IMG/VR virus record: IMGVR_UViG_3300036985_004624
Reading direction: 5' to 3' (one strand)
DNA: 64,000 nucleotides
Source: a virus
In this document: piece by piece, positions 1,084 through 63,561 of the stretch
Layout of the letters: every line of letters begins with the position of its first letter
How positions within the stretch are numbered: position 1 is the stretch's first letter
Notes under the pieces: generated by a model
Databases searched by the model: none
Told to the model about the DNA's origin: nothing
What the model saw: the letters and a program-made list of their open reading frames with translations, nothing else
Translations under genes and position numbers: made by a program

Positions 1084-1770
1084 CTAAACACCTAAGATGT
1101 GTTCTCTAAAAGCGGCAGTAGAAATTGGAACGATAGGTTCGATCAATTTCAACATAGCTTCAGCATAAACACGAATTTCGTATTGTGCATGAGAATGTAA
1201 TCTAAGTTTAAGGAAGTGAAATAAGTTATGTAAATCGCAAGTAGCAAACATATGACTATATGTTCCTACCGGTAGTACCGAACGTGCTAACTCACGAGGG
1301 CAACCATTTAATATTAACTTGCGATAATGGCTGAAGGAAGCTTCGCTAGATGATCTGATAATTTCGGCCACGCCTTCTGCATCCCGATGTTGTTCGTCTG
1401 TACGCATCTGCTTATTAGATGATGACTGAGTGGTAATTTGAGCTAGTTCCGGCACGTAGAATTCTTCTGGCAGCTCTGCATAACGAGCAGAAATTTCATT
1501 AAAACTCCAAGTACGATGTCTGTGCCATTGTCTAAATACAAAGATAGGTGCTTTTACATCAAATGTAAAAACGCAAGATTCAAACGGACTGGTATGTTTA
1601 TTTTTTAACAAGTAATGGAGCAATTTGGCATCTTTGCCATCGTCGTCACCTGCTCGCCATTCTGCATCGTAGGATACTCTGGCATTACGCACAATGGATA
1701 AGTCGCTACCCATGCTTTCGACCAATCGTACATGGCCATGATCTAAAACTTTAATAATATTATCTTGCAT
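1084..1770 (-). CDS. thyX: Flavin-dependent thymidylate synthase
   Basis: ARVSY, HTSPFE, RQWHRHRTWSFNEISARY, ELARSVLP, LRLHSHAQYEIR. Start placed at ATG 1770 behind AGGAGA (ORF track starts at 1818). Confidence 0.97.
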   Translation of the reverse strand: MQDNIIKVLDHGHVRLVESMGSDLSIVRNARVSYDAEWRAGDDDGKDAKLLHYLLKNKHTSPFESCVFTFDVKAPIFVFRQWHRHRTWSFNEISARYAELPEEFYVPELAQITTQSSSNKQMRTDEQHRDAEGVAEIIRSSSEASFSHYRKLILNGCPRELARSVLPVGTYSHMFATCDLHNLFHFLKLRLHSHAQYEIRVYAEAMLKLIEPIVPISTAAFREHILGV

Positions 1771-1814
1771 ATCTTCTCCTGATATGCAAATTGTATACGA
1801 AAATCTATCGAAAG

Positions 1815-5768: not shown

Positions 5769-7211
5769 TTACTTCCTCGCGTTAGCGCGAACTTCGTCAA
5801 AGGTGATTTCCTTCACCAAGACACCATCACGATAGACTTCCGAGAGAGCCTCGACCCACGGGCCAATGCTCTTGTCAGCCCAACCACGGGGTTGTTCAAC
5901 AGCAGATTCAAACGAACCGCCGCTTTGCCAAAGAGTCACGCGACCCTTCTTGGATGCCTTGCCGTGATCAGTGATCGGATCCTTGAACACATCACGCCAT
6001 TCTACCCGAGACGGGGTGACAAATGTTGGATCATCGCTAAACTCTACATACTCACGAACACCGATCGCAGAACACTTCATTGCAAAACGCATTGTGTCAC
6101 GATTGACTTGTTGAAGCAGCGCACCACCTTGACCAAATGCCACATTGTCTGCACTGAATCCAGCAAGTTCCATACAGAACAAAATGCTGCGAATTGTAGC
6201 ATGATCAATGCCATCACCTTGGATAACGCGGACATTGTTTAATACACGGAATCCCTTGGCGTTCTTCACAGAACCGTAGTACTTTTCCAGAATGTAAAGA
6301 CACTTGGTGACCACTTCGCTTGGTTCACCAGAGTCAGGACGAATGACAACAACAGCGCCTGAGTCAAGCACGTCTTGTTTCAGTTCTGTGCCCCACATCT
6401 TGCAGGCATTGTAAATGTCGTATGAGTCCGAGACGAACGCAATCGGGGCGCCGGCCTTGCCGTGTGTTTTCAGCATGTTCCTGTAGGAATCTACTTCGTG
6501 GTCCTTGCCCCAGGATGTTACAGTAGAATGCTCCATAGCAGGTATGCTGAACCCAGCAATACCAGCATTATAAAACTCACCTGCGTACAATAACCCAGAT
6601 ATGTTGTCAGTTCCCATGAAGTTAATGAGGTGTGCTGCTCCACCCAATCCGGAACTTTCGAAGCTACTAACGCCACGGGCGCCAAAGTCGTGAAGCTTAA
6701 AATCAATAAGAGTAGGGTCACCAGTTTTCTCCAAGTAGTCAAGAATAATTTTCTTCGATTCGTAGCTGTTTGTAGCTACTGTGGTAGGATACCAGATTGC
6801 GCGCAGAATGGCCGTTTCCAGGAAGCTTGTGAGCCACCAGCACTTCGGGTCGGTGTTGACGATTGTTGCTAGGACGTTCTTAGTCGGAATGAGTGTACCT
6901 TCTGGGGCCGCTTTAATGACGACTGGAAGACGACCTTCGTGCGCCTCAAGAATATATTCCCACCCTTCACGATAAAACGGTTCACCGTGAGCAGTGATAA
7001 TGGCTTCTGCAACATCGATATCTTCCTTGGTGATCGGAGTAGTCAAATACTCCTTGATGAATGCCTGCAATCCGAAAAAGACTGTTTTGTTCCACTGACC
7101 GCCACGCGATTCAATGTAAGAATACACATATTCGGTATTTTTAGGGTATTGATTCCACTGAGAGAATTTATAACTGTCACTATTAAGTATCAGGTTGTGA
7201 GATAATTTCAT
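5769..7211 (-). CDS. nadV: Nicotinamide phosphoribosyltransferase (NAMPT)
   Basis: DSYKFSQ, LHDFGARG, SIPAMEHS, VSDSYD, IRPDSG, IQGDG, FGQGGALLQ, RDT..FAMK, KDPITD..KASKKG. Confidence 0.96.
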   Translation of the reverse strand: MKLSHNLILNSDSYKFSQWNQYPKNTEYVYSYIESRGGQWNKTVFFGLQAFIKEYLTTPITKEDIDVAEAIITAHGEPFYREGWEYILEAHEGRLPVVIKAAPEGTLIPTKNVLATIVNTDPKCWWLTSFLETAILRAIWYPTTVATNSYESKKIILDYLEKTGDPTLIDFKLHDFGARGVSSFESSGLGGAAHLINFMGTDNISGLLYAGEFYNAGIAGFSIPAMEHSTVTSWGKDHEVDSYRNMLKTHGKAGAPIAFVSDSYDIYNACKMWGTELKQDVLDSGAVVVIRPDSGEPSEVVTKCLYILEKYYGSVKNAKGFRVLNNVRVIQGDGIDHATIRSILFCMELAGFSADNVAFGQGGALLQQVNRDTMRFAMKCSAIGVREYVEFSDDPTFVTPSRVEWRDVFKDPITDHGKASKKGRVTLWQSGGSFESAVEQPRGWADKSIGPWVEALSEVYRDGVLVKEITFDEVRANARK

Positions 7212-7300
7212 AATAAAGTTCCTTTATTTAAATGCCTAACTCTATCGTCAGGACTTTTCTTACTATGACTTATTGTAGCAGAATTACTATTTTAAGTCAA
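7212..7300 (-). promoter_or_regulatory. Early promoter plus two-hairpin leader of nadV
   Basis: TTGACT-17-TACAAT (7300-7272); CCUGAC-GAUAGA-GUUAGG hairpin; AAUAAAG-GAA-CUUUAUU hairpin covering the SD and abutting the AUG. Confidence 0.7.
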
Positions 7301-8276
7301 TTTTTTTGGACAATACCAAATTCCCGCACGTAACTAATCCTTGTTCCTCGTCCATCGAAGGAACAAAAACTAACACATCGTAGCCTGCCAGTTTAAGTGA
7401 TTCCTCTACCGTCTTATACGGTAGATAGGAGTCATATCCGCCAACAGTTTTAATGTTGTTTTTCCTACATGCGTCATTATTATGAATCGGAGTAATCTTT
7501 ACCATAAATTTATTCGGATCAAAAAGACCCAATAGCTTATTAGCATCTATTTCGTAGTTAGTGCTATAAGCAAAATTCAAACAATATTTTCTGCCGATAG
7601 GATCAGGCAGTCGATTTCCAATATCGGATATTTCTTTAAGGGTTAGCTGCCCATACGCAAACATATCATTCCGTTGTTCCTCACTAGTTGAATTTATGCT
7701 CAACTGTAATCCTGCCTGGCCATTATATAGCTCATTTTTAATCTGGCACCATTCATTTAATCTCGCTTCATTGTGCTTAAACTTATTCGGTAACGAAGTA
7801 GTTAGAACAGGATGAATAACTTCGGTACGGAGATTTAACTCTTGCTGAATAATATGCTTGTTAGTAAATAACCATCTTGCGAAGTTGAAAACATGATCAT
7901 TAACAATAGGTTCGCCCATCCGAGCAAAATGAATATTCAACCGGTCAGTATAATGAACTTCGGGAAAACATTTTACTGCCTCATAAAACTGTAACTTAAG
8001 ATCGTCGAAGGATGCATTACCTTTAAATGGAATCTTTGGCACATCGCAAAATCGGCAGTTTTGGATACAACCATATTGCGTTGAGAGTGTGATCACCCAT
8101 TTTTCAGATAAGGGCAAACAATTGCCATTTGCAACTCCGTTGATTTCATTTGGAAATCCGAGAAAATCAGCTTTTATGTTTCGTGATTTTCCGTAGTCTC
8201 CGATGGATAATGTTTCGAGTTCGCCACGTAATCCATCGACTGTAAAAAGGTAGCCAGTTGGTATCTTATTTCTCAT
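7287..8276 (-). CDS. RlmN/Cfr-like radical SAM enzyme
   Basis: STQYGCIQNCRFC (CxxxCxxC), RMGEP, QLSINS, C-terminal TCGNL. Confidence 0.8.
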   Translation of the reverse strand: MRNKIPTGYLFTVDGLRGELETLSIGDYGKSRNIKADFLGFPNEINGVANGNCLPLSEKWVITLSTQYGCIQNCRFCDVPKIPFKGNASFDDLKLQFYEAVKCFPEVHYTDRLNIHFARMGEPIVNDHVFNFARWLFTNKHIIQQELNLRTEVIHPVLTTSLPNKFKHNEARLNEWCQIKNELYNGQAGLQLSINSTSEEQRNDMFAYGQLTLKEISDIGNRLPDPIGRKYCLNFAYSTNYEIDANKLLGLFDPNKFMVKITPIHNNDACRKNNIKTVGGYDSYLPYKTVEESLKLAGYDVLVFVPSMDEEQGLVTCGNLVLSKKIDLK

Positions 8277-9187
8277 TATACAATTCCCAATGTTGTACGA
8301 AGCATCGAGATAGTATCATCGTCGTATCGTATTCTAACCATTTTATATCCATTATCGTTTGCATATGATGTCTTAAATTCATCATTAGTCTTCATATCCT
8401 CCAGATCGTTACAACGATATCCTTCCTCATAATGTTGTTTGCCATCATATTCTAATAGAATATTATATTCAGGCAAATAAAAATCATATTTTAATTTACC
8501 TTTATTTCTAATGCAATTATGAAATGTTTTCTGGGTTGTATATTCGATATGATGTCTAATCAAAAAATTTCTAATTAAATTCTCTCCCTTTGATGAAGAA
8601 TTACAACTGGGACAGCCTACACCACGGCCGTGATCATTTGCTTGTTGTTTAAATATGCCGTGCTTGGGACAAATAATCCGAATTTTAGATGTTGCTCGCT
8701 TATAATCTTCGAAAACATAATTGTATCTATATGAATTTCCATGATGGGATATAGAATTCAATAAAAAATCGTTAATTAATATTTCTTTTGCTTCAGTTGC
8801 ACATTCGGGACACCCGCATCCGCTCAAATGATCGCTATATGATTGTTCAAAAACGCCATGTTTTCTACATATAATTTTTAATTTACTACCAGAGGTATAA
8901 TCAGCATCATTTAAGTAATATTCATATAATTCCCCGTGTTTATGGAGTATTTTACTCTTCATATATTCCCACCCCTTTGGACCAAACGGAGAACACGATC
9001 GACACCCGTATTTAGATGCCTTCATTAGGTGGAAGAATGACGTTTCAAATTCACCATGCTCAAAGCAAACAAAAGTTTCTTTATAATCTACACCACGAAA
9101 AATAAATGTAGGCAAGGTTGTAATTTTGTTACCATATTTTTCATATATTTCTGATACAGCAGATGATGTTGTTCGTTTCTTTTTCAT
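8276..9187 (-). mobile_element. Putative homing endonuclease (zinc-ribbon repeats plus C-terminal Vsr/PD-(D/E)XK-like nuclease)
   Basis: Three C-x-x-HG...H...GCxxC repeats; SKGE...YDFYLP...LLEYDGKQHY...D..K...IRY C-terminus. Confidence 0.82.
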
Positions 9188-9231
9188 AGAATATCTCCTA
9201 TATTGTATTTACCGATAATCATCGGAATAGA

Positions 9232-10260
9232 TTATGCAATCAAGGAAGAAATAATTTCAAAATGATCTTCAAAACATACGGCAGAATCCAATTCGCTTAA
9301 CGGCATAAACCGAGCCTTATCAGCGTCGTCTATTCCCCTCACTTTCGGTAATACTCCGTCGGGAAGATCTATTTTAAATACATGGGTTATTGTGCGGCCG
9401 CGAGTACTTCGATCAATGGCATCAAACACCCTGACTTTATTAATATTACCGATCAGTACAGGGGATGGTACTTTAATCCCGGTCTCTTCTCGCAATTCCC
9501 TAATCATAGCATCTTGTATGCTTCGGTCAGTCTGTGCATTTAAAAACCCACCAGGCAATGCCCATAACCCCTTACCGGGTTCACTCTTACGACGAATCAT
9601 TAGTATATGCCCGGAGCATATTACCACTGCATCTGTTGTTACAAAAACAGGCGCATATGGTAAACTTGAATATTGTTTCTTATACATTTCAACAAATTCT
9701 CGTTCTCGAATAATTTGTTCGTATTCAGGTGTATCTTTCCAACCTTCGAGCAATCTAAATACAGGTTGTGGTACAACACCCTGAATAAAGTGCATATTAG
9801 CATCTCGACGAAAGTAAAGATCACGGATATTTGTAGCATTGAGTGGCTCCAATAACGGAACTTCTACTTGTTCCCATTGCGGAAACATATCAAGATAGAA
9901 ACAAGTGCTATCTTTCTTGTGACCAATCACACCAATTTTATCACCGGGCTGTGTATGTTTTGCCACAATAGACTGAATGCGACCAGCCCATGCTGTATCG
10001 TTATAAATTGTGTCTACATTATGCTCTATGCGAACTGCACATTCGGTTTCCGGAACTATATAGTTCAGAATATTTTCGAGCATGTTTTGGCGGTCTTTGC
10101 TTGTCCACGGATTCTTATAAGTCCGTGGTTGATTGGCACTGCCGACAATGATAATAATTTGTTTGGAGAGTTTGCTTGCTCTACGAATAATTTCTGTATG
10201 AGCGTTGTGGACCGGTTGAAAGCGGCCGATGAATACAAGTGTATGATACTGTTTTGTCAT
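9232..10260 (-). CDS. natV: Bifunctional NMN adenylyltransferase / ADP-ribose pyrophosphatase (NadM-Nudix)
   Basis: FIGRFQPVHNAH, GSAN..RTYKNPW, NATNIRD; Nudix box GLWALPGGF...RELREETG, RSTRGRTIT, DDA, FEDH. Confidence 0.95.
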   Translation of the reverse strand: MTKQYHTLVFIGRFQPVHNAHTEIIRRASKLSKQIIIIVGSANQPRTYKNPWTSKDRQNMLENILNYIVPETECAVRIEHNVDTIYNDTAWAGRIQSIVAKHTQPGDKIGVIGHKKDSTCFYLDMFPQWEQVEVPLLEPLNATNIRDLYFRRDANMHFIQGVVPQPVFRLLEGWKDTPEYEQIIREREFVEMYKKQYSSLPYAPVFVTTDAVVICSGHILMIRRKSEPGKGLWALPGGFLNAQTDRSIQDAMIRELREETGIKVPSPVLIGNINKVRVFDAIDRSTRGRTITHVFKIDLPDGVLPKVRGIDDADKARFMPLSELDSAVCFEDHFEIISSLIA

Positions 10261-10355
10261 AACATAAATCCTATGTTGTTTAATGATATAGTAAAGTCTA
10301 TCTCTACTATTGTTATTTAGCCTTTATTATACAATAACGGCATAATCTTGGTCAA
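10261..10355 (-). promoter_or_regulatory. Early and late promoters plus two-hairpin leader of natV
   Basis: TTGACC-18-TATAAT (10355-10326), CTAAATA (10320-10314); AUAGUAGAG-AUAGA-CUUUACUAU hairpin; AACAUAG-GAU-UUAUGUU hairpin abutting the AUG. Confidence 0.7.
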
Positions 10356-28801: not shown

Positions 28802-29173
28802 ATGACAAATATTCTAGAGATAAAAGATAAATTTCCGTTCTTAAGTGGACTAAAATCGCCTACCTATGAATATATAGGTATTATTCAAAACTCCGATGAC
28901 AGAATAATAAGCTTCTACGATTATGAAGCCATACATACTCCGCAAGAAAAGATACTTTTCTTAGAGTTAGGTGAAATATGGTGGTGGGAAAGTAATAGGT
29001 TGCTACCTATTAATATATTCTTACAAGGCCAGATGAACCCGTTTCGTTATTGTATGAAGACTGTAGTTAATAAAGACATAGAAGTTATGTTTGGCACATT
29101 GACTAGTCTAAATAATATAATGAAGAAACGCATTAAGAAGCGTCAGATACAGTTAATCAGAAATACTGATTAA
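28802..29173 (+). CDS. Hypothetical protein
   Basis: TATAAATA upstream; KFPFLS, YIGIIQN, LGEIWWWESNRLLPINIFL. Confidence 0.75.
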   Translation: MTNILEIKDKFPFLSGLKSPTYEYIGIIQNSDDRIISFYDYEAIHTPQEKILFLELGEIWWWESNRLLPINIFLQGQMNPFRYCMKTVVNKDIEVMFGTLTSLNNIMKKRIKKRQIQLIRNTD

Positions 29174-48834: not shown

Positions 48835-49587
48835 TTAACCGATTACAAAGCTATATCCATCCGAAGCAGTTACGAGATTTTGTAGTTGTAATTCTAACTT
48901 ATCCATCTCTACCTGAGCTTCTTGCTTAATAGTAGCACCATTAAGAGTAACATTGCCATTCGGTCCCGGAAAACCTCCCGGAAACTTATCTCTTGCTTCG
49001 CCTAACATATACTTAGAATATGCTGTAGAATAAGAACGTAACCAAGGCCCTGTATAAGGATCGTTAATGATATCATCTTCCGATTTGCTTGCATAAACGC
49101 GCACCGCTACCTCTTCGTCTGCTGTCGGTCGGCGAATAATTTTCAATGTATGAGAATTTACGTCCCATGTGAAATTCATCTGACTTGCAAATAATCGTTC
49201 GGTTGTTTCCAAGAATTGATTATACATATCCCATGTAGCCAATCCGCCGGACCTATTTGGTTGCAACATATAGATATTATAGAATGCAGCATCTACTGGA
49301 TCAAAATTGATACCGCCGTTTGTATATGCACCGACGCCCCGGCGATATAGTCTTCTAACTTCCTGAACTTCGTCCGGTAATGTATATTCTGTTATATCTC
49401 GTGTAATATGTAAAAAGATATCTTTCTCAAGATTAGCGCCATCCGATTGTTGACGCAACTTTTGAATACCAATCGTAATACCTAAATTTATGTGTTCTTG
49501 GTCGAGTTCGACATCCACCATCTGAGAACCGAGCAAAAGCTCTATTTGGCGAATTAGCAGGGATCTCGGTGTATATTGTGCAGACAT
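48835..49587 (-). CDS. Neck / head-tail adaptor protein (gp13-like)
   Basis: LG..MVDVELD, W...Y..A..K..LG..R.KF, GP.G.VTLNG, F.IG end. Confidence 0.85.
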   Translation of the reverse strand: MSAQYTPRSLLIRQIELLLGSQMVDVELDQEHINLGITIGIQKLRQQSDGANLEKDIFLHITRDITEYTLPDEVQEVRRLYRRGVGAYTNGGINFDPVDAAFYNIYMLQPNRSGGLATWDMYNQFLETTERLFASQMNFTWDVNSHTLKIIRRPTADEEVAVRVYASKSEDDIINDPYTGPWLRSYSTAYSKYMLGEARDKFPGGFPGPNGNVTLNGATIKQEAQVEMDKLELQLQNLVTASDGYSFVIG

Positions 49588-49618
49588 AGTGTATCAACTC
49601 CAGTGATACACTATTTAT
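49588..49618 (-). promoter_or_regulatory. Late promoter overlapping an RBS-flanking hairpin of the neck gene
   Basis: GATAAAT-AGTGTATCA-CTGGAGT-TGATACACT-ATG. Confidence 0.6.
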
Positions 49619-59023: not shown

Positions 59024-59689
59024 ATGATTAAATATATAAACTGCTGCCATTGTGGAATACATACAGAATTACCTAAATCAAACCCATATAAAAAGTTTTG
59101 CTCGATTAAATGTGGAGCATTATTTCAAAATAAAGATAAAATAAATCTGTTAGCGATCGAATACGAAAAATCACCTAATATATGTTTCACATGCGAATGT
59201 AATCTGCCGTACTCAAAAAGACATAATAAATATTGTTCACGATCTTGTTCCGCGAAAACTACGAAAAATAATACCACTCACGGAAAATACATAATAACAG
59301 AGAAAGAATGTATTATATGCAAATCTATAACAACCAATAACAAAGTATGTTCGACATCTTGTAGGGAAATTCTATTATCAAAACCAAGAAAATATTTTAC
59401 AGAGGAAGAAAGATTACATGCTAAACGAGCAATACAACGTGAAGCAAATGCCAGGTATTGCGCTAAAAAGAAATATAATACACCAGTTGACGAAGATTTA
59501 TCCGCTATAAAACTTTTTTACAGAAACTGTCCGCCGGGATATGAAGTGGATCATAAAACACCCATATCTAAAGGCGGTGCCCACTCCTTGGTTAATATGC
59601 AATATCTCACAATTTCTGATAATAGAAAAAAACATGCTAAACTAGATTGGTGCCCCGGGGGCGAATCAAACGCCCGACACCATTCTTAG
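59024..59689 (+). mobile_element. HNH endonuclease with N-terminal Cys-rich zinc-binding repeats
   Basis: CxxC...(F/Y)CSxxC repeats; YEVDHKTPISKGGAHSLVNMQYL...NRKK; own GATAAATA late motif. Confidence 0.88.
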
Positions 59690-59723
59690 GAGGAATGTAC
59701 TCTATTCACTGAGCTACCGGGGC
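59648..59723 (-). tRNA. tRNA-Arg(CCT)
   Basis: GCCCCGG acceptor, CATTC-CTCCTAA-GAATG anticodon arm, GGGCG-TTTGATT-CGCCC, encoded CCA. Confidence 0.92.
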
Positions 59724-59750
59724 CTATTCTATCCATTGAACTATAGCGAT
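59724..59750 (-). pseudogene. 5' half of an interrupted tRNA
   Basis: ATCGCTA-TA-GTTC-AATGGATA-GAAT-A-G (acceptor 5' strand plus D-arm). Confidence 0.75.
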
Positions 59751-59751
59751 T

Positions 59752-59985
59752 TTATGTTTCACTTAACGCCTGTCGAAATCCTGTATATCCGCCCGGAACA
59801 AAAGACCCATCTATAAAAATTTGTGGCACAGTTCGTACTTTTGTACCGATTCTATCTTCTAAAGTTTGAAGATTCGAACCTTCTCTAACATTTATATAGT
59901 TGTATTGTATATCATTTGTTTCACATAATTGAACTGCTTGTGTGCAATAGGTACATGAATCCGCTCCGTAAATCTCTACCTGCAT
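59752..59985 (-). CDS. Glutaredoxin
   Basis: CTYC, RTVPQIFIDG..V.GGY. Confidence 0.92.
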   Translation of the reverse strand: MQVEIYGADSCTYCTQAVQLCETNDIQYNYINVREGSNLQTLEDRIGTKVRTVPQIFIDGSFVPGGYTGFRQALSET

Positions 59986-60029
59986 ATTGTGTCTCCGTTA
60001 AGTTACTTACTTACCTAAAAACTTGTAGG

Positions 60030-60239
60030 TTAATCTATAAATGACATAAATTCTAGCCGACCATCTGGATACTCGAATAGCCCCAATAATGATACATTTT
60101 CTCTACGATTTCGTCCCTGCGGATATTCTGCTATCTTAATGACTAATACATTTTTTCGGTATGTTTCTGTTATCTTAACTACTTCGCCTTTGTATCCTTC
60201 GAACTGAAGTTTACTGCCTTCTTTATAATATGATGCCAT
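60030..60239 (-). CDS. Hypothetical protein
   Basis: 69-aa ORF with AAGG SD. Confidence 0.55.
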   Translation of the reverse strand: MASYYKEGSKLQFEGYKGEVVKITETYRKNVLVIKIAEYPQGRNRRENVSLLGLFEYPDGRLEFMSFID

Positions 60240-60250
60240 TATGCCTTTTA

Positions 60251-61180
60251 TTAAATCCCCGGAATCGTGCCAGTAAACGACGGAGAAGATTTTATACCTT
60301 CTAAATCAGAATATGTTGTACACATTGGCAATTTGCATATAATGGGCTCCTTAGATAAAGTAAATCCTGTAAAAATATTACTTAAATTTGCACCCTGATT
60401 ACAGCAAGTATTCGAAACATTGCCTATTTCATCAATCCGAACATAGGTATTAGGTACATGACATGTCCACCCGGTATATCTGTTCATATTTTTTGATACC
60501 ATCTCTGCTGGATCTGTTCGATATATAATTTCATCATTGTGATTATATATCCGTACCCATTTATCCACTGGATATGCCGATTCCGATATCCACGATATCT
60601 GTTCGGATGTATATCTTTCATTAACAGTTTGCCAATTATCCATAATTGCCTTTGTTGTCACAGAAAATCCGGCAGCGACTAATATATTATATACTGCAAT
60701 GCATTCATCCCATCTGTCGGGCAGCATCATTAAGCAAATTTTTCCTAACTTCTTATGCACGTTATAGATGAGATCAGCAATAGCTATAAATCTATCTAAA
60801 TTAGCATACTCTAAATGATAGGATAGAAATACAGCATTTATCATTGGTGTAATTCTTTCCCAGAATGCAATAGGTCTTGCACCATTACTTAATAAGTTAA
60901 TATTAATATAATCTGGTTTCTCTAAAATAATCTTTTCAATATCTGGATGATACGTCGGTTCGCCGCCACCTAATAACACATCACACGGTGGTAATTTTTT
61001 CAATGTATCCTGTACCACCTGTGTATTATGAAACGGAGAATTCCCCGAATAAAATTTAGGAATACAATAGCTGCACCGATATGTGCATATGTTGCCTAAT
61101 ATCCAGTATACTTTTATATTTCTGCGAGATTTGCCATCTATATAAGCTACTTCCGGATCATAAATATTCAATTCATTCAT
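60251..61180 (-). CDS. Radical SAM protein with twitch/SPASM-like C-terminus
   Basis: CTYRCSYC, GGGEPT, SNG, GW.C, CC, C...C. Confidence 0.88.
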   Translation of the reverse strand: MNELNIYDPEVAYIDGKSRRNIKVYWILGNICTYRCSYCIPKFYSGNSPFHNTQVVQDTLKKLPPCDVLLGGGEPTYHPDIEKIILEKPDYININLLSNGARPIAFWERITPMINAVFLSYHLEYANLDRFIAIADLIYNVHKKLGKICLMMLPDRWDECIAVYNILVAAGFSVTTKAIMDNWQTVNERYTSEQISWISESAYPVDKWVRIYNHNDEIIYRTDPAEMVSKNMNRYTGWTCHVPNTYVRIDEIGNVSNTCCNQGANLSNIFTGFTLSKEPIICKLPMCTTYSDLEGIKSSPSFTGTIPGI

Positions 61181-61446
61181 ACAATACTTATCTGACTTGC
61201 TGCTATCATTTTTGCTGCAATTTCCTCTGCTCTGGCCTGTATATCCGATTTAGTCATACACGCTTTCTTCCTGATTAATGCATCTCTTACCCATTGCGGG
61301 AAATGAGATCCTTCTAAGTTGGCAAGTTGCTCGGCCGTATAATTATCTAAATTATCTAGTACAAGTTGAACGTCTGGCTTCTTTTTCATTTTATTAAAAA
61401 ACGAATCTTTGTATCCGCGTGGGCCTAAAGCATAATTACCTTCCAT
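61177..61446 (-). CDS. Hypothetical protein
   Basis: Start MEGNY directly after the upstream stop (ORF track extends to 61572). Confidence 0.55.
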   Translation of the reverse strand: MEGNYALGPRGYKDSFFNKMKKKPDVQLVLDNLDNYTAEQLANLEGSHFPQWVRDALIRKKACMTKSDIQARAEEIAAKMIAASQISIV

Positions 61447-61447
61447 A

Positions 61448-61921
61448 TTAATATACCATCTTAGATTTATCGAACTTAAAATAGTATACTCGGCCGTTAC
61501 CATATGAGCTAGGTATATATTGATGCATACCGCCGCACTCGACAGCTTTATACATATACATCCTGCCTTCATAAAGAAATATGAGTGCTAGGTAATCTAA
61601 CCTCTTAATCTCTGCTGCCTTCTTGTATTGCTCGAATTTATCATCTACCGTAAAGCATTTATTACCATTTATTGTATATATAGAATTTTTAGATTTTACA
61701 TCTACCGCAAATGTTCCTTTGGTAGGATTTTTATTATATACTGCGAAATCTGGGAGAACTACTTTACCTTCTGTCCCGTATAAGCAAGGTCCTGCAAATT
61801 CTCCGTGTTTCTGTTGCCGGAGATCTTCTACGTAGCTATTATGTGCCACCAAATATGGATAGACCAGATTCTCTGCATCTATCCCCATCTCTAATTTTTC
61901 TTTAAAGTGCTCTGATTGCAT
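61448..61921 (-). CDS. PD-(D/E)XK nuclease-like protein
   Basis: G..AE, LPDF, VDVKSK. Confidence 0.6.
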   Translation of the reverse strand: MQSEHFKEKLEMGIDAENLVYPYLVAHNSYVEDLRQQKHGEFAGPCLYGTEGKVVLPDFAVYNKNPTKGTFAVDVKSKNSIYTINGNKCFTVDDKFEQYKKAAEIKRLDYLALIFLYEGRMYMYKAVECGGMHQYIPSSYGNGRVYYFKFDKSKMVY

Positions 61922-62380
61922 CTCTTACACGCATTAAAGTAATACCTAATAAGTTTTGGCCACGCCAAGTGTTTTGATCTAGTGCGCGTGGATCCTCTTC
62001 GGTGAGTCCAATACCCCAAATTCTGTCAACGGGGCTTGCCTCAACAATGATTGTATCGCCTGTATTTAATAGTGCTTCTTTCAATAAAGGGTTCTGATTA
62101 AATTTTTCAAATAAACCTTCTACCATTATATCGACTCGCTTTGCTGACCAGATTGCTTCATCATAATTAGCTACCATTCTGCCTAAATCTTTCTGTTCTT
62201 TAGGATTTCCGGTTAAGAGGATGGCATGAGCGGTATTGATATCGCCAAACATAATAGCTTTTTGGTACATCATGTATTGTTCGCCGCGGGAAAAAGAAAT
62301 ACCGTTATGAGTAAAAATACTAGGGTACCAATTTGAGAAGGGCATCTATTCTGCCAAAAAAATGTAAAGTTATGTGTCAT
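61902..62380 (-). CDS. NADAR (YbiA-like) ADP-ribosyl/N-glycosidase with a frameshift near the N-terminus
   Basis: FSNWY, EQYMMYQKA..F.D, K.LGR, KF.QN, VEASP.DRIWGIG, G.NLLG..LM.VR. The N-terminal MTHNFTFFWQNR from ATG 62380 is in a different frame. Confidence 0.88.
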
Positions 62381-62397
62381 TGTTTTCTTTCGTTATT

Positions 62398-62474
62398 TGG
62401 TACCACCGGCGAGATTCAAACTCACATCGTACGCTTTAGAAGAGCGTTGCCTTATTCGGTTAGACCACGGTGGT
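62398..62474 (-). tRNA. tRNA-Arg(TCT)
   Basis: ACCACCG/CGGTGGT acceptor, ACGCT-CTTCTAA-AGCGT, GTGAG-TTTGAAT-CTCGC, CCA. Confidence 0.92.
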
Positions 62475-62482
62475 GTAAAATT

Positions 62483-62713
62483 CTATCTAATTCTCGTAGC
62501 TTTGTAATTGCCTTTGATAAACTGATGCCAGAACCTACCTTTAGATCCGGATTTAGTCCATTTTTCAAACATAGTTCTTGTAATTCCCGGAATAGAGAAT
62601 GACTTACCATTAGACAATCTCATTGTCAGTACCTTATTCGGTCTATTATGAGTAAGGTTTGATATCCACGTAGATTCTACCTTCTTTTCTAATAATAGTT
62701 CGAATAATTTCAT
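62483..62713 (-). CDS. KTSC-domain protein with MKLFELLLE N-terminus
   Basis: VESTWISNL...LTMRLSNGKSF...SKGRFWHQFIKGNY; late motif upstream. Confidence 0.75.
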   Translation of the reverse strand: MKLFELLLEKKVESTWISNLTHNRPNKVLTMRLSNGKSFSIPGITRTMFEKWTKSGSKGRFWHQFIKGNYKATRIR

Positions 62714-62731
62714 TATACCATATTTATCATT

Positions 62732-62820
62732 TGGCGGAAGATGGAGGTATCGAACCCCAGGCCGTTGCCGACCCCAACTGTTTTCGAGGCAGTGTTATAC
62801 ACCTGTATAAATCATCTTCC
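62732..62820 (-). tRNA. tRNA-Ser(CGA), 8/4 fold with Sec-like D-arm
   Basis: GGAAGATG/CATCTTCC 8-bp acceptor, TTATAC-AGGT-GTATAA D-arm, CTCGAAA loop, long variable arm, GGGG/CCTC T-stem, G73-CCA. Confidence 0.85.
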
Positions 62821-62936
62821 ATTTCAGTATAGCGTTTTAAACATGCTTCCATTACACCAATTCCCCTTTCGGAGAACTGCGGATTCGAACCGCAACCGCT
62901 CTTTTATGAAAAGATTTTTATTTGCTGAAACTATAC
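62821..62936 (-). ncRNA. Circularly permuted tRNA-like RNA (YrlA/Y-RNA-like or tRNA mimic)
   Basis: Order 5'->3': anticodon arm TCTT-TTCATAA-AAGA, T-arm TGCGG-TTCGAAT-CCGCA, acceptor GTTCTCC-GAAA-GGGGAAT, TG, D-arm GTGT-AATGGAA-GCAT; ends pair via GTATAG/CTATAC and TTTCAG/CTGAAA. Confidence 0.8.
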
Positions 62937-62943
62937 TTTAAAA

Positions 62944-63249
62944 CTATTCATATATCGTAACTACTTCGGTAATACCGTTCGCCTTAAAATATGCATCACG
63001 TATTACATAATTTGGCTGCGTGACTTTCGCAGCAAGCCATGCATCACCATTAATTTGTGTATCGAACACTACGACATGTCGATAAACATTATCTATCAAT
63101 AGATTCTGTCCGAATGATAAAATAAATCCTTCGACAGAATGATTCCAATTATCTATGGCAACCGAAGTTGCATATGCCGATTGTCCGCTTTTAGCGAACC
63201 AATCGATATTGGCAGGTTTTGTTGCCTCTATCTTAATTACATATGCCAT
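62944..63249 (-). CDS. Hypothetical protein
   Basis: 101-aa ORF between tRNA genes. Confidence 0.6.
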   Translation of the reverse strand: MAYVIKIEATKPANIDWFAKSGQSAYATSVAIDNWNHSVEGFILSFGQNLLIDNVYRHVVVFDTQINGDAWLAAKVTQPNYVIRDAYFKANGITEVVTIYE

Positions 63250-63259
63250 TTAAAATATC

Positions 63260-63333
63260 TGGTATCGACGTCAGGAATCGGACCTGAGTTGAGCCCTTAT
63301 AAGGAGCCTATTCTACCATTGAATTACGCCGAT
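63260..63333 (-). tRNA. tRNA-Ile(TAT)
   Basis: ATCGGCG/CGTCGAT, GGCTC-CTTATAA-GGGCT, TCAGG-TCCGATT-CCTGA, A73-CCA. Confidence 0.85.
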
Positions 63334-63340
63334 AAATTCT

Positions 63341-63451
63341 TTACTTCTTTGTGCTAAATGTAGCCCACCATTCTTTAATCTGATTCCATACCTTCATCCA
63401 GAATGGAGCAAATGCTGCACCAACTGCAATACCTATAATAAAATTAAACAT
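63341..63451 (-). CDS. 36-aa membrane peptide
   Basis: MFNFIIGIAVGAAFAPFWMKVWNQIKEWWATFSTKK; GGAGG SD, GATAAATA late motif. Confidence 0.65.
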   Translation of the reverse strand: MFNFIIGIAVGAAFAPFWMKVWNQIKEWWATFSTKK

Positions 63452-63487
63452 ATAACCTCCGGATCAAAATACTATTTATCTCTAATT

Positions 63488-63561
63488 TGGAGCGGGGTGC
63501 GAGAATCGAACTCGCACTATCAGCTTGGAAGGCTGAAATCCTACCATTAAATGAACCCCGC
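63488..63561 (-). tRNA. tRNA-Gly(TCC)
   Basis: GCGGGGT/ACCCCGC, TCAGC-CTTCCAA-GCTGA, GCGAG-TTCGATT-CTCGC, U73-CCA. Confidence 0.93.

Follow-up and report, generated by a model that had tools for sequence, protein, structure and literature searches.

Does a structured RNA control the synthesis of the two nicotinamide adenine dinucleotide (NAD) salvage enzymes encoded by a phage, and if so, what reads it? The question is raised by IMG/VR virus record IMGVR_UViG_3300036985_004624, a stretch of 64,000 nucleotides (nt) that was analyzed at its full length and is referred to here as the window. Two of its genes, nadV and natV, are each preceded by a short leader that can form two hairpins: the first (HP1) carries GAUAGA at its apex, and the second (HP2) contains the Shine-Dalgarno (SD) sequence and ends at the start codon. 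A sequence-only reading of the window had taken these leaders for an undescribed cis-regulatory RNA that co-regulates NAD salvage, and this interpretation is supported overall. The leaders represent a genuine and widespread cis-regulatory RNA that belongs to the NadM-Nudix/NadV salvage module: both helices covary, and in whole phage and bacterial genomes the element stands almost exclusively before natV (or nadM) and nadV.

Structure, conservation and genomic distribution of the leader

Three covariance models were used, namely R1 (HP1 only), R2 (phage copies) and R3 (105 phage and bacterial copies). The two genes and the parts of their leaders, with lengths in amino acids (aa) and base pairs (bp), are as follows.

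5769..7211, minus strand: nadV, nicotinamide phosphoribosyltransferase, 480 aa (Pfam NAMPT_N and NAPRTase; tblastn to phage NadV proteins)
7212..7228, minus strand: HP2 of the nadV leader, 7-bp A/U-rich stem, AAUAAAG-GAA-CUUUAUU; the AAGGAA SD is half-buried and the hairpin ends at the AUG
7229..7234, minus strand: linker of the nadV leader, CAUUUA, whose CAU is complementary to AUG
7235..7252, minus strand: HP1 of the nadV leader, 6-bp stem, CCUGAC-GAUAGA-GUUAGG (R3 match 7209-7254, 30.1 bits)
9232..10260, minus strand: natV, bifunctional nicotinamide mononucleotide (NMN) adenylyltransferase and Nudix ADP-ribose pyrophosphatase, 342 aa (Pfam CTP_transf_like and NUDIX)
10261..10277, minus strand: HP2 of the natV leader, 6-7-bp stem around the UAGGAU SD; ends at the AUG
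10278..10287, minus strand: linker of the natV leader, AUCAUUAAAC, in which UCAU is able to pair with the AUGA of the start codon region
10288..10310, minus strand: HP1 of the natV leader, 9-bp stem, AUAGA loop (R3 match 10258-10311, 47.6 bits)

The leader sequences and coordinates given by the sequence-only reading are exact to the base, and the start codons follow directly at 7211-7209 (nadV) and 10260-10258 (natV), both on the minus strand. The nine pairs of the natV HP1 include the G-C pair that flanks AUAGA, which leaves a loop of 5 nt. ViennaRNA predicts both hairpins in both leaders, with z about -2.8 relative to shuffled sequences. HP1 is predicted to be stable (-6.8 kcal/mol for nadV and -6.9 for natV), and HP2 folded alone is predicted to be weak (-1.3 and -1.9 kcal/mol at 37 C; -4.2 and -4.5 at 15 C). 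Within the leader, HP2 has a high predicted pairing probability that leaves the SD region free only at three loop bases, and the flanks of the nadV SD have a predicted unpaired probability under 0.1.

The combination of the two hairpins is specific to the NAD genes of the window. GATAGA occurs 59 times, five of these within a hairpin of at least 5 bp, and an SD hairpin follows only at the two NAD leaders. The same two leaders are the only R3 matches at E <= 0.5 (natV, E 9e-8; nadV, E 8e-4), and R2 scores them at 50.8 and 16.9 bits, respectively. R1 was discarded as holding too little information: it placed nadV at 14.4 bits, among noise matches, and the weak matches that we inspected all lay inside open reading frames (ORFs). 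The sequence-only reading had not noticed the arrangement at other genes of the window. This stands for HP1 joined to an SD hairpin; it does not stand for HP2-type hairpins, which are found at about seven other starts among 78 genes (for example thyX), and a third, decayed leader also precedes the ORF with its start at 9187 (described below). The occurrence of HP2-type hairpins at other genes points to HP1 as the NAD-specific part of the leader.

Two start-site hairpins are worth recording in their own right. At the start of thyX, directly after a sigma-70-like promoter, GCAUAUC-AGGAGAA-GAUAUGC (1764-1788, minus strand) places the SD in a loop and the AUG in the stem, an HP2 design without HP1. 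A very stable SD hairpin with a 9-bp stem and a CUGGAGU loop (49588-49612, minus strand) ends exactly at the ATG of ORF 48835-49587; the region from -30 to +6 of this start folds at -12.7 kcal/mol, compared with a mean of -3.2 for the window.

A protein-guided scan of IMG/VR returned 48 loci with NadV 36-92% identical. Where NadV is at least 55% identical, most loci retain a hairpin whose apex is GAUAGA(C) but whose stem is wholly different, followed by a second hairpin around AAGGAG that ends at the ATG, and the same design precedes natV. Covariation was computed on fixed-register alignments. For HP1 alone (35 sequences), 78% of cells are paired (50% when shuffled), covariation is 0.726 as compared with 0.217 for shuffled and at most 0.216 for slid alignments, and nine of nine pairs changed on both sides. 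Alignment of HP1 together with HP2 in 25 sequences gave 88% paired cells (98.7% for HP2 alone) and covariation of 0.816, against 0.22 shuffled and at most 0.16 slid. For 104 distinct copies from phages and bacteria, 87% of cells are paired and covariation reaches 0.822, whereas shuffled alignments give 0.19 and slid ones no more than 0.11. The claim that the stems differ in sequence yet keep pairing, originally drawn from two leaders, therefore extends to both helices over more than 100 copies.

These 104 copies define the anatomy of the family. At the apex, G-A-N-A-G-A-C, the G, A, A and G are invariant wherever the letter is present (101-102 copies), the last A occurs 99 times and the closing C 97 times; the one variable position, N, is most often U (80), otherwise C (15), A (6) or G (1). 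In the nadV leader of the window a G replaces the closing C, a variant common to four other loci (L001, L003, L012 and L017). Two steps below the HP1 loop, a G-C or G-U pair is preferred. HP2 has about 6 bp around a GGAGU or GGAUU loop, and its 3' arm abuts or includes the AUG (CAUGAG...CUCAUG). The linker is 4-14 nt long, contains 7% G and varies in sequence, so the CAUU(U/A)A spacer that had been proposed as a common feature does not hold for the family. Both window leaders have what R3 defines as the family: the HP1 apex and stem, an HP2 with the SD loop at the AUG, and a place before natV or nadV.

Within the leader copies we found no pseudoknot, kissing pair or tertiary covariation, and the HP1 loop is complementary neither to itself nor to the linker or the HP2 loop. 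Pairing of GAUAGA with an HP2 3' arm of the form UUUAU(C/U) was considered and rejected, as it fails in many leaders with UUUUGCG or CUCAUG arms. The variable loop base shares its top mutual information with the closing pair of HP2, a signal that follows G+C content.

Whole-genome scans were made on ten phage records or genomes, about 2 Mb in total. In five whole IMG/VR records (1.0 Mb) all matches with E < 0.05 lie at NAD genes, and the same is true of four of five further complete genomes (Synechococcus phage B23, Ralstonia phages RsoM2USA and RSP15, and two complete IMG/VR genomes). For the fifth, the 385-kb source record of L012, R3 has no match and R2 finds the nadV leader at 22.2 bits. 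For bacteria, 80 nadM-Nudix loci were retrieved with an alignment of 17 NatV proteins. R3 yields 144 matches in nearly all of these loci, all on the coding strand, directly 5' of nadM and of the next gene, which is nadV by tblastn. Carriers include Burkholderia, Paraburkholderia, Ralstonia, Stenotrophomonas, Xanthomonas, Lysobacter, Caulobacter, Methylocystis, Pseudoalteromonas, Thiothrix, Methylomonas, Sulfurovum and others. The motif spans three proteobacterial classes (Alpha-, Beta- and Gammaproteobacteria) as well as the Campylobacterota, and occurs in several phage families. When five bacterial genomes were scanned whole (33 Mb), the matches at E <= 10 all fell within a single nadM-nadV locus per genome. 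The sequence-only reading had named a lack of enrichment upstream of NAD genes as grounds against itself; the covariance-model search found the motif strongly enriched there.

A small number of copies precede other genes. A radical-SAM gene carries the leader in L003, as do two small ORFs heading a natV operon in L017 and L006. Some Gammaproteobacteria have a third copy 3' of nadV (L135, 7116-7170; L128, 4555-4612; L097, 6593-6645), which in L135 and L128 precedes an SPFH/Band-7 gene. A prohibitin-family gene lies near nadV in Rhizobium phage B1VFA as well. Four Psychrobacter loci (L110, L124, L126 and L131) have HP1 and HP2 before nadV, about 130 nt upstream, with an extra hairpin of about 40 nt that extends the linker to about 60 nt; these were missed by the covariance models, and HP1 was not seen at the nadM genes of the same four loci. 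In an even sample of 151 Gammaproteobacteria, R3 identified two credible carriers, too few for a co-occurrence table; the seven matches in a third genome lie on both strands and look like repeats. Finally, a hairpin with a GAUAGAC apex (E 0.46) lies in a 725-nt gene-free gap of L057 (1501-1556, minus strand; 29103-29158 of the L001 record). It has no SD hairpin and is probably a chance occurrence. The gap adjoins an ORF that by eye resembles a TROVE/vWA (Ro-like) protein, and may hold a non-coding RNA.

How the leader may act and what may read it

The position of the copies bears on the step that is controlled. In nadM-nadV operons the nadV copy occupies a gap of 75-135 nt between the cistrons, with HP2 often including the AUG. 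Since this copy lies inside the operon and over a start site, action is most likely on the translation of each cistron, and we regard translation as the probable level of control. In the mechanism that we propose, the structured RNA before each NAD-salvage cistron would set how often that cistron is translated. The marginally stable HP2 would hold the SD sequence GGA(G) in its loop, with its 3' arm at or including the AUG, and the G-A-N-A-G-A-C apex of HP1 would serve as a recognition handle on a stem of free sequence. A protein of the cassette would bind HP1 and the adjoining linker, and would thereby either hold the start-site hairpin closed or obstruct the 30S subunit. We infer that binding represses, such that the pathway would limit its own synthesis; a bound substrate or product would probably modulate the effect.

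Clustering of ORFs from 128 phage and bacterial loci showed that NadM-Nudix and NadV are the only proteins common to phage and bacterial motif loci, and therefore the reader should be one of these enzymes, a metabolite, or a universal component of the cell. Our best guess, offered tentatively and with the odds somewhat against it, is an enzyme of the cassette, and of the two we would sooner name NatV (NadM-Nudix) than NadV. A variable linker and the lack of base-pairing covariation with the loop form the pattern usual for a hairpin recognized by a protein. By analogy, a weak start-site hairpin beside a stable hairpin with a sequence-specific apex resembles the layout of protein-read translational operators. 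A KTSC-domain ORF beside natV was also considered as an RNA-binding reader and was rejected, being confined to the closest relatives.

Several points weigh against an enzyme as the reader. NadM-Nudix and NadV always co-occur here, hence co-occurrence cannot tell them apart from each other or from a metabolite, and neither is known to bind RNA. Very small hairpin motifs have proved to be riboswitches before, as in the case of guanidine-II. The linker contains (U)CAA(C/U) in 44 of 104 copies as compared with 25 expected, a figure inflated by related sequences, and this could form part of a ligand pocket. In addition, ACP17, Rhizobium phage B1VFA and a KVP40-like Vibrio phage encode both enzymes without the motif; the enzymes consequently do not require it, and the motif would be an optional layer of control.

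A metabolite could take the place of the protein. In this reading the leader would be a minimal riboswitch in which linker, SD hairpin and ANAGA loop jointly bind NAD+, NMN, ADP-ribose, nicotinamide or phosphoribosyl pyrophosphate (PRPP), with the start-site hairpin stabilized or opened as a result. A factor-free sensor would explain why the element occurs in very different hosts with only the two enzymes as common partner genes. The layout, two small hairpins with a linker of variable length and the second hairpin at the SD, is that of guanidine-II; the linker is enriched in (U)CAA(C/U), and the marginal stability of HP2 is as expected of a switchable element. Against this, the invariant unpaired bases number only about six, a junction, an internal loop and a pseudoknot are all absent, no column covaries with the loop in the manner of a tertiary pair (the best mutual information follows G+C), and the models of NAD+-I, NAD+-II and other Rfam families are unmatched. 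Direct binding of a metabolite is a possibility that we consider rather doubtful. Slightly more doubtful still is the fuller claim that the leader constitutes a new minimal riboswitch class for a metabolite of the NAD pathway, a third NAD-related class, common to Proteobacteria, Campylobacterota and large phages. If a riboswitch were the answer, salvage in bacteria and phages could follow the NAD pool directly, for instance upon depletion of NAD+ by a defence system; if it were a third class, the NARP2 counter-defence enzymes of phages would respond directly to the NAD+ collapse of abortive infection.

It seems unlikely that the leader is read by a universal component of the cell, whether the ribosome or its protein S1 (at a standby site or enhancer), an RNase or a global RNA-binding protein, which would give a fixed translation rate or mRNA lifetime. 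Such a reader would suit a motif that is spread across Alpha-, Beta- and Gammaproteobacteria, Campylobacterota and several phage families, and an unstructured, G-poor and CAA-rich linker. In phages, HP1 lies near the 5' end of the transcript, just past the promoters, where a stable hairpin can protect mRNA. However, a general signal would be expected at many genes, and the motif is confined to one locus per genome (33 Mb of bacterial and about 2 Mb of phage sequence); nor would a protective hairpin need six invariant loop bases.

Recognition of the DNA rather than the RNA is very improbable. HP1 is an inverted repeat in DNA as well, and could serve a transcription factor as operator, for instance an NAD regulator of the NrtR type; in Synechocystis, nadM-nadV is under NrtR control through operators upstream of the operon (PMC2330246). 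In the leader, however, the arms are free and covary and the asymmetric center is invariant, which is the opposite of a palindrome read by a protein. Moreover, the matches are on the coding strand only, copies lie between cistrons of one operon and directly over ribosome-binding sites, and no regulator gene is common to the loci. Chance likeness, or a functionless recent copying of one window leader to the other, draws on the A/T-rich sequence and the commonness of GATAGA, and is refuted by more than 100 independent copies that keep structure by compensatory changes, together with gene context, in distant phages and bacteria.

Surroundings of the leaders in the window

The window is A/T-rich (38.7% G+C) and derives from a freshwater T4-like phage, with genes for RIIA, tail sheath, UvsX, the large terminase and ribonucleotide reductase, almost throughout on the minus strand. 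The Rfam tRNA model identifies four tRNA genes at 59651-63561 (minus strand). DNA near-identical to the window is present in freshwater and sediment metagenomes, and a search of INPHARED DNA found no close relatives. The other features around the two leaders are as follows.

7272..7300, minus strand: predicted sigma-70-like promoter of nadV, TTGACT, 17 nt, TACAAT, with TG before the second hexamer (consensus match only)
7287..8276, minus strand: radical-SAM-like ORF, 329 aa, phrog_24834, between natV and nadV
8276..9187, minus strand: DUF723/zinc-finger, homing-endonuclease-like ORF
9188..9225, minus strand: decayed third leader copy before the DUF723 ORF (start 9187), CCGAU-GAUU-AUCGG, linker UAAAUAC, AAUAU-AGGAG-AUAUU
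10314..10320, minus strand: CTAAATA box, candidate T4-type late promoter, 3 nt before the natV HP1
10326..10355, minus strand: predicted sigma-70-like promoter of natV, TTGACC, 18 nt, TATAAT (consensus match)

Each of the two leaders is thus preceded by a strong sigma-70-like promoter, and natV additionally has CTAAATA at the position of a late box. Leaders of late and structural genes of the phage have GATAAATA in common, about 20-30 nt 5' of the ATG. The GATAAATA box is seen at many minus-strand starts, for example before 49587, 45376, 41992, 38520, 25277, 22183 and 20322. From what is known of T4, the TAAATA or GATAAATA box appears to be a T4-type late promoter. A TAAATA box stands 3-6 nt 5' of HP1 in many natV leaders of relatives; if it is a late promoter, HP1 would stand at the extreme 5' end of the late transcripts. 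For nadV, a TTAAATA box between the two hairpins was considered as a late promoter and rejected, as the relatives do not conserve it. In four metatranscriptome runs, contigs of low depth span portions of natV, of nadV and of the natV leader, for which carry-over of DNA is a possible source; these data are contigs, hence RNA ends are not visible in them.

The decayed copy has a GAUU loop in place of GAUAGA. In L003, the homolog of the radical-SAM ORF of the window has an intact leader with GAUAGAG. These two observations suggest that the endonuclease-like gene may have inserted between the radical-SAM gene and its leader. The closest relative (L001) lacks 7424-9225 of the window. This stretch of 1802 bp contains the DUF723/zinc-finger ORF together with the decayed leader, as well as codons 1-283 of the radical-SAM-like ORF, of which L001 retains just the final 46 codons (100% identical). 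In the metatranscriptome data, one contig likewise joins 7423 to 9226. The difference is a strain-level indel, most likely from a deletion in the relative, and is not splicing.

Comparison with known systems

No family of Rfam 15 matches the element in the window, in the leaders at E <= 10 or in ten bacterial loci, and no description of the motif was found in the full-text literature searched. Within these searches the leader is undescribed, as had been proposed, also with respect to the NAD+-I and NAD+-II models. NadV and NatV are reported to form NARP2, a pathway by which phages rebuild NAD+ after defence systems have destroyed it (bioRxiv 10.1101/2024.02.11.579819); we found no account of the control of this pathway in the literature searched. 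At 55 nt, with clear covariation and six bases that never vary, the RNA is a compact object that lends itself to testing, and it would represent either a new feedback loop between enzyme and RNA or a new minimal riboswitch. Carriers in culture include Synechococcus phage B23, Ralstonia phages RSP15 and RsoM2USA, and Stenotrophomonas maltophilia.

The NAD+-I and NAD+-II riboswitches are among the systems closest to the leader and are likewise cis-regulatory RNAs of NAD metabolism. NAD+-II comprises P1, P1a and a large internal loop that is conserved; a pseudoknot of 3 bp forms with the SD, the terminal loop varies, and translation is turned off by hiding the SD (PMC9841397). In contrast, the leader has two separate hairpins without internal loop or pseudoknot, and its conserved part is the terminal loop; the NAD+-II model gives no match at its gathering score or at E <= 10. 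NAD+-I is built of tandem bulged-stem domains; its model has no match either, and neither stem of the leader has a conserved bulge. The genes differ as well, nadM and nadV for the leader, nadA and pnuC for the riboswitches. The earlier impression that the element is unlike the NAD+ riboswitches is borne out by its architecture.

NrtR operators resemble the leader in that they control nadM-nadV in some bacteria; the study describing them treats this gene pair only in Synechocystis and does not mention Xanthomonas or Burkholderia (PMC2330246). NrtR operators are conserved DNA palindromes upstream of operons, whereas the arms of the leader covary, and the leader is strand-specific and also found between cistrons.

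PyrR binding loops (RF00515) of Bacillus pyr leaders have a purine-rich terminal loop of the A-N-A-G-A type that is read by a protein of the pathway. This loop type is shared with the leader and may be taken as a lead only. In Firmicutes, PyrR attenuates transcription of pyr genes, whereas the leader lies over the starts of NAD genes; at E <= 10 the leaders do not match RF00515, and the loci have no PyrR-like gene in common.

The guanidine-II riboswitch (mini-ykkC) comprises two small hairpins with covarying stems and a variable linker; conservation is limited to the loops, and the second of the hairpins is located at the ribosome-binding site. The leader likewise has two small hairpins, a variable linker and a second hairpin at the ribosome-binding site. 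The mini-ykkC loops, however, are both ACGR and form a kissing pair, whereas the loops of the leader, GANAGAC and GGAGY, are not complementary. The genes concerned serve NAD salvage rather than guanidine handling, and the Rfam model of guanidine-II is unmatched.

Autogenous operators are known from gene 43 (DNA polymerase) of T4 and RB69, and from E. coli thrS, which is bound by threonyl-tRNA synthetase. The leader shares with them a small hairpin with a sequence-specific loop and a free stem, placed just upstream of or overlapping the SD and AUG, and a likely action on translation initiation. The binding protein is only proposed in the case of the leader. Unlike these operators, one type of leader serves at least two cistrons (natV and nadV, and sometimes a radical-SAM gene, an SPFH gene or a small ORF), and it is common to phages and four bacterial lineages.

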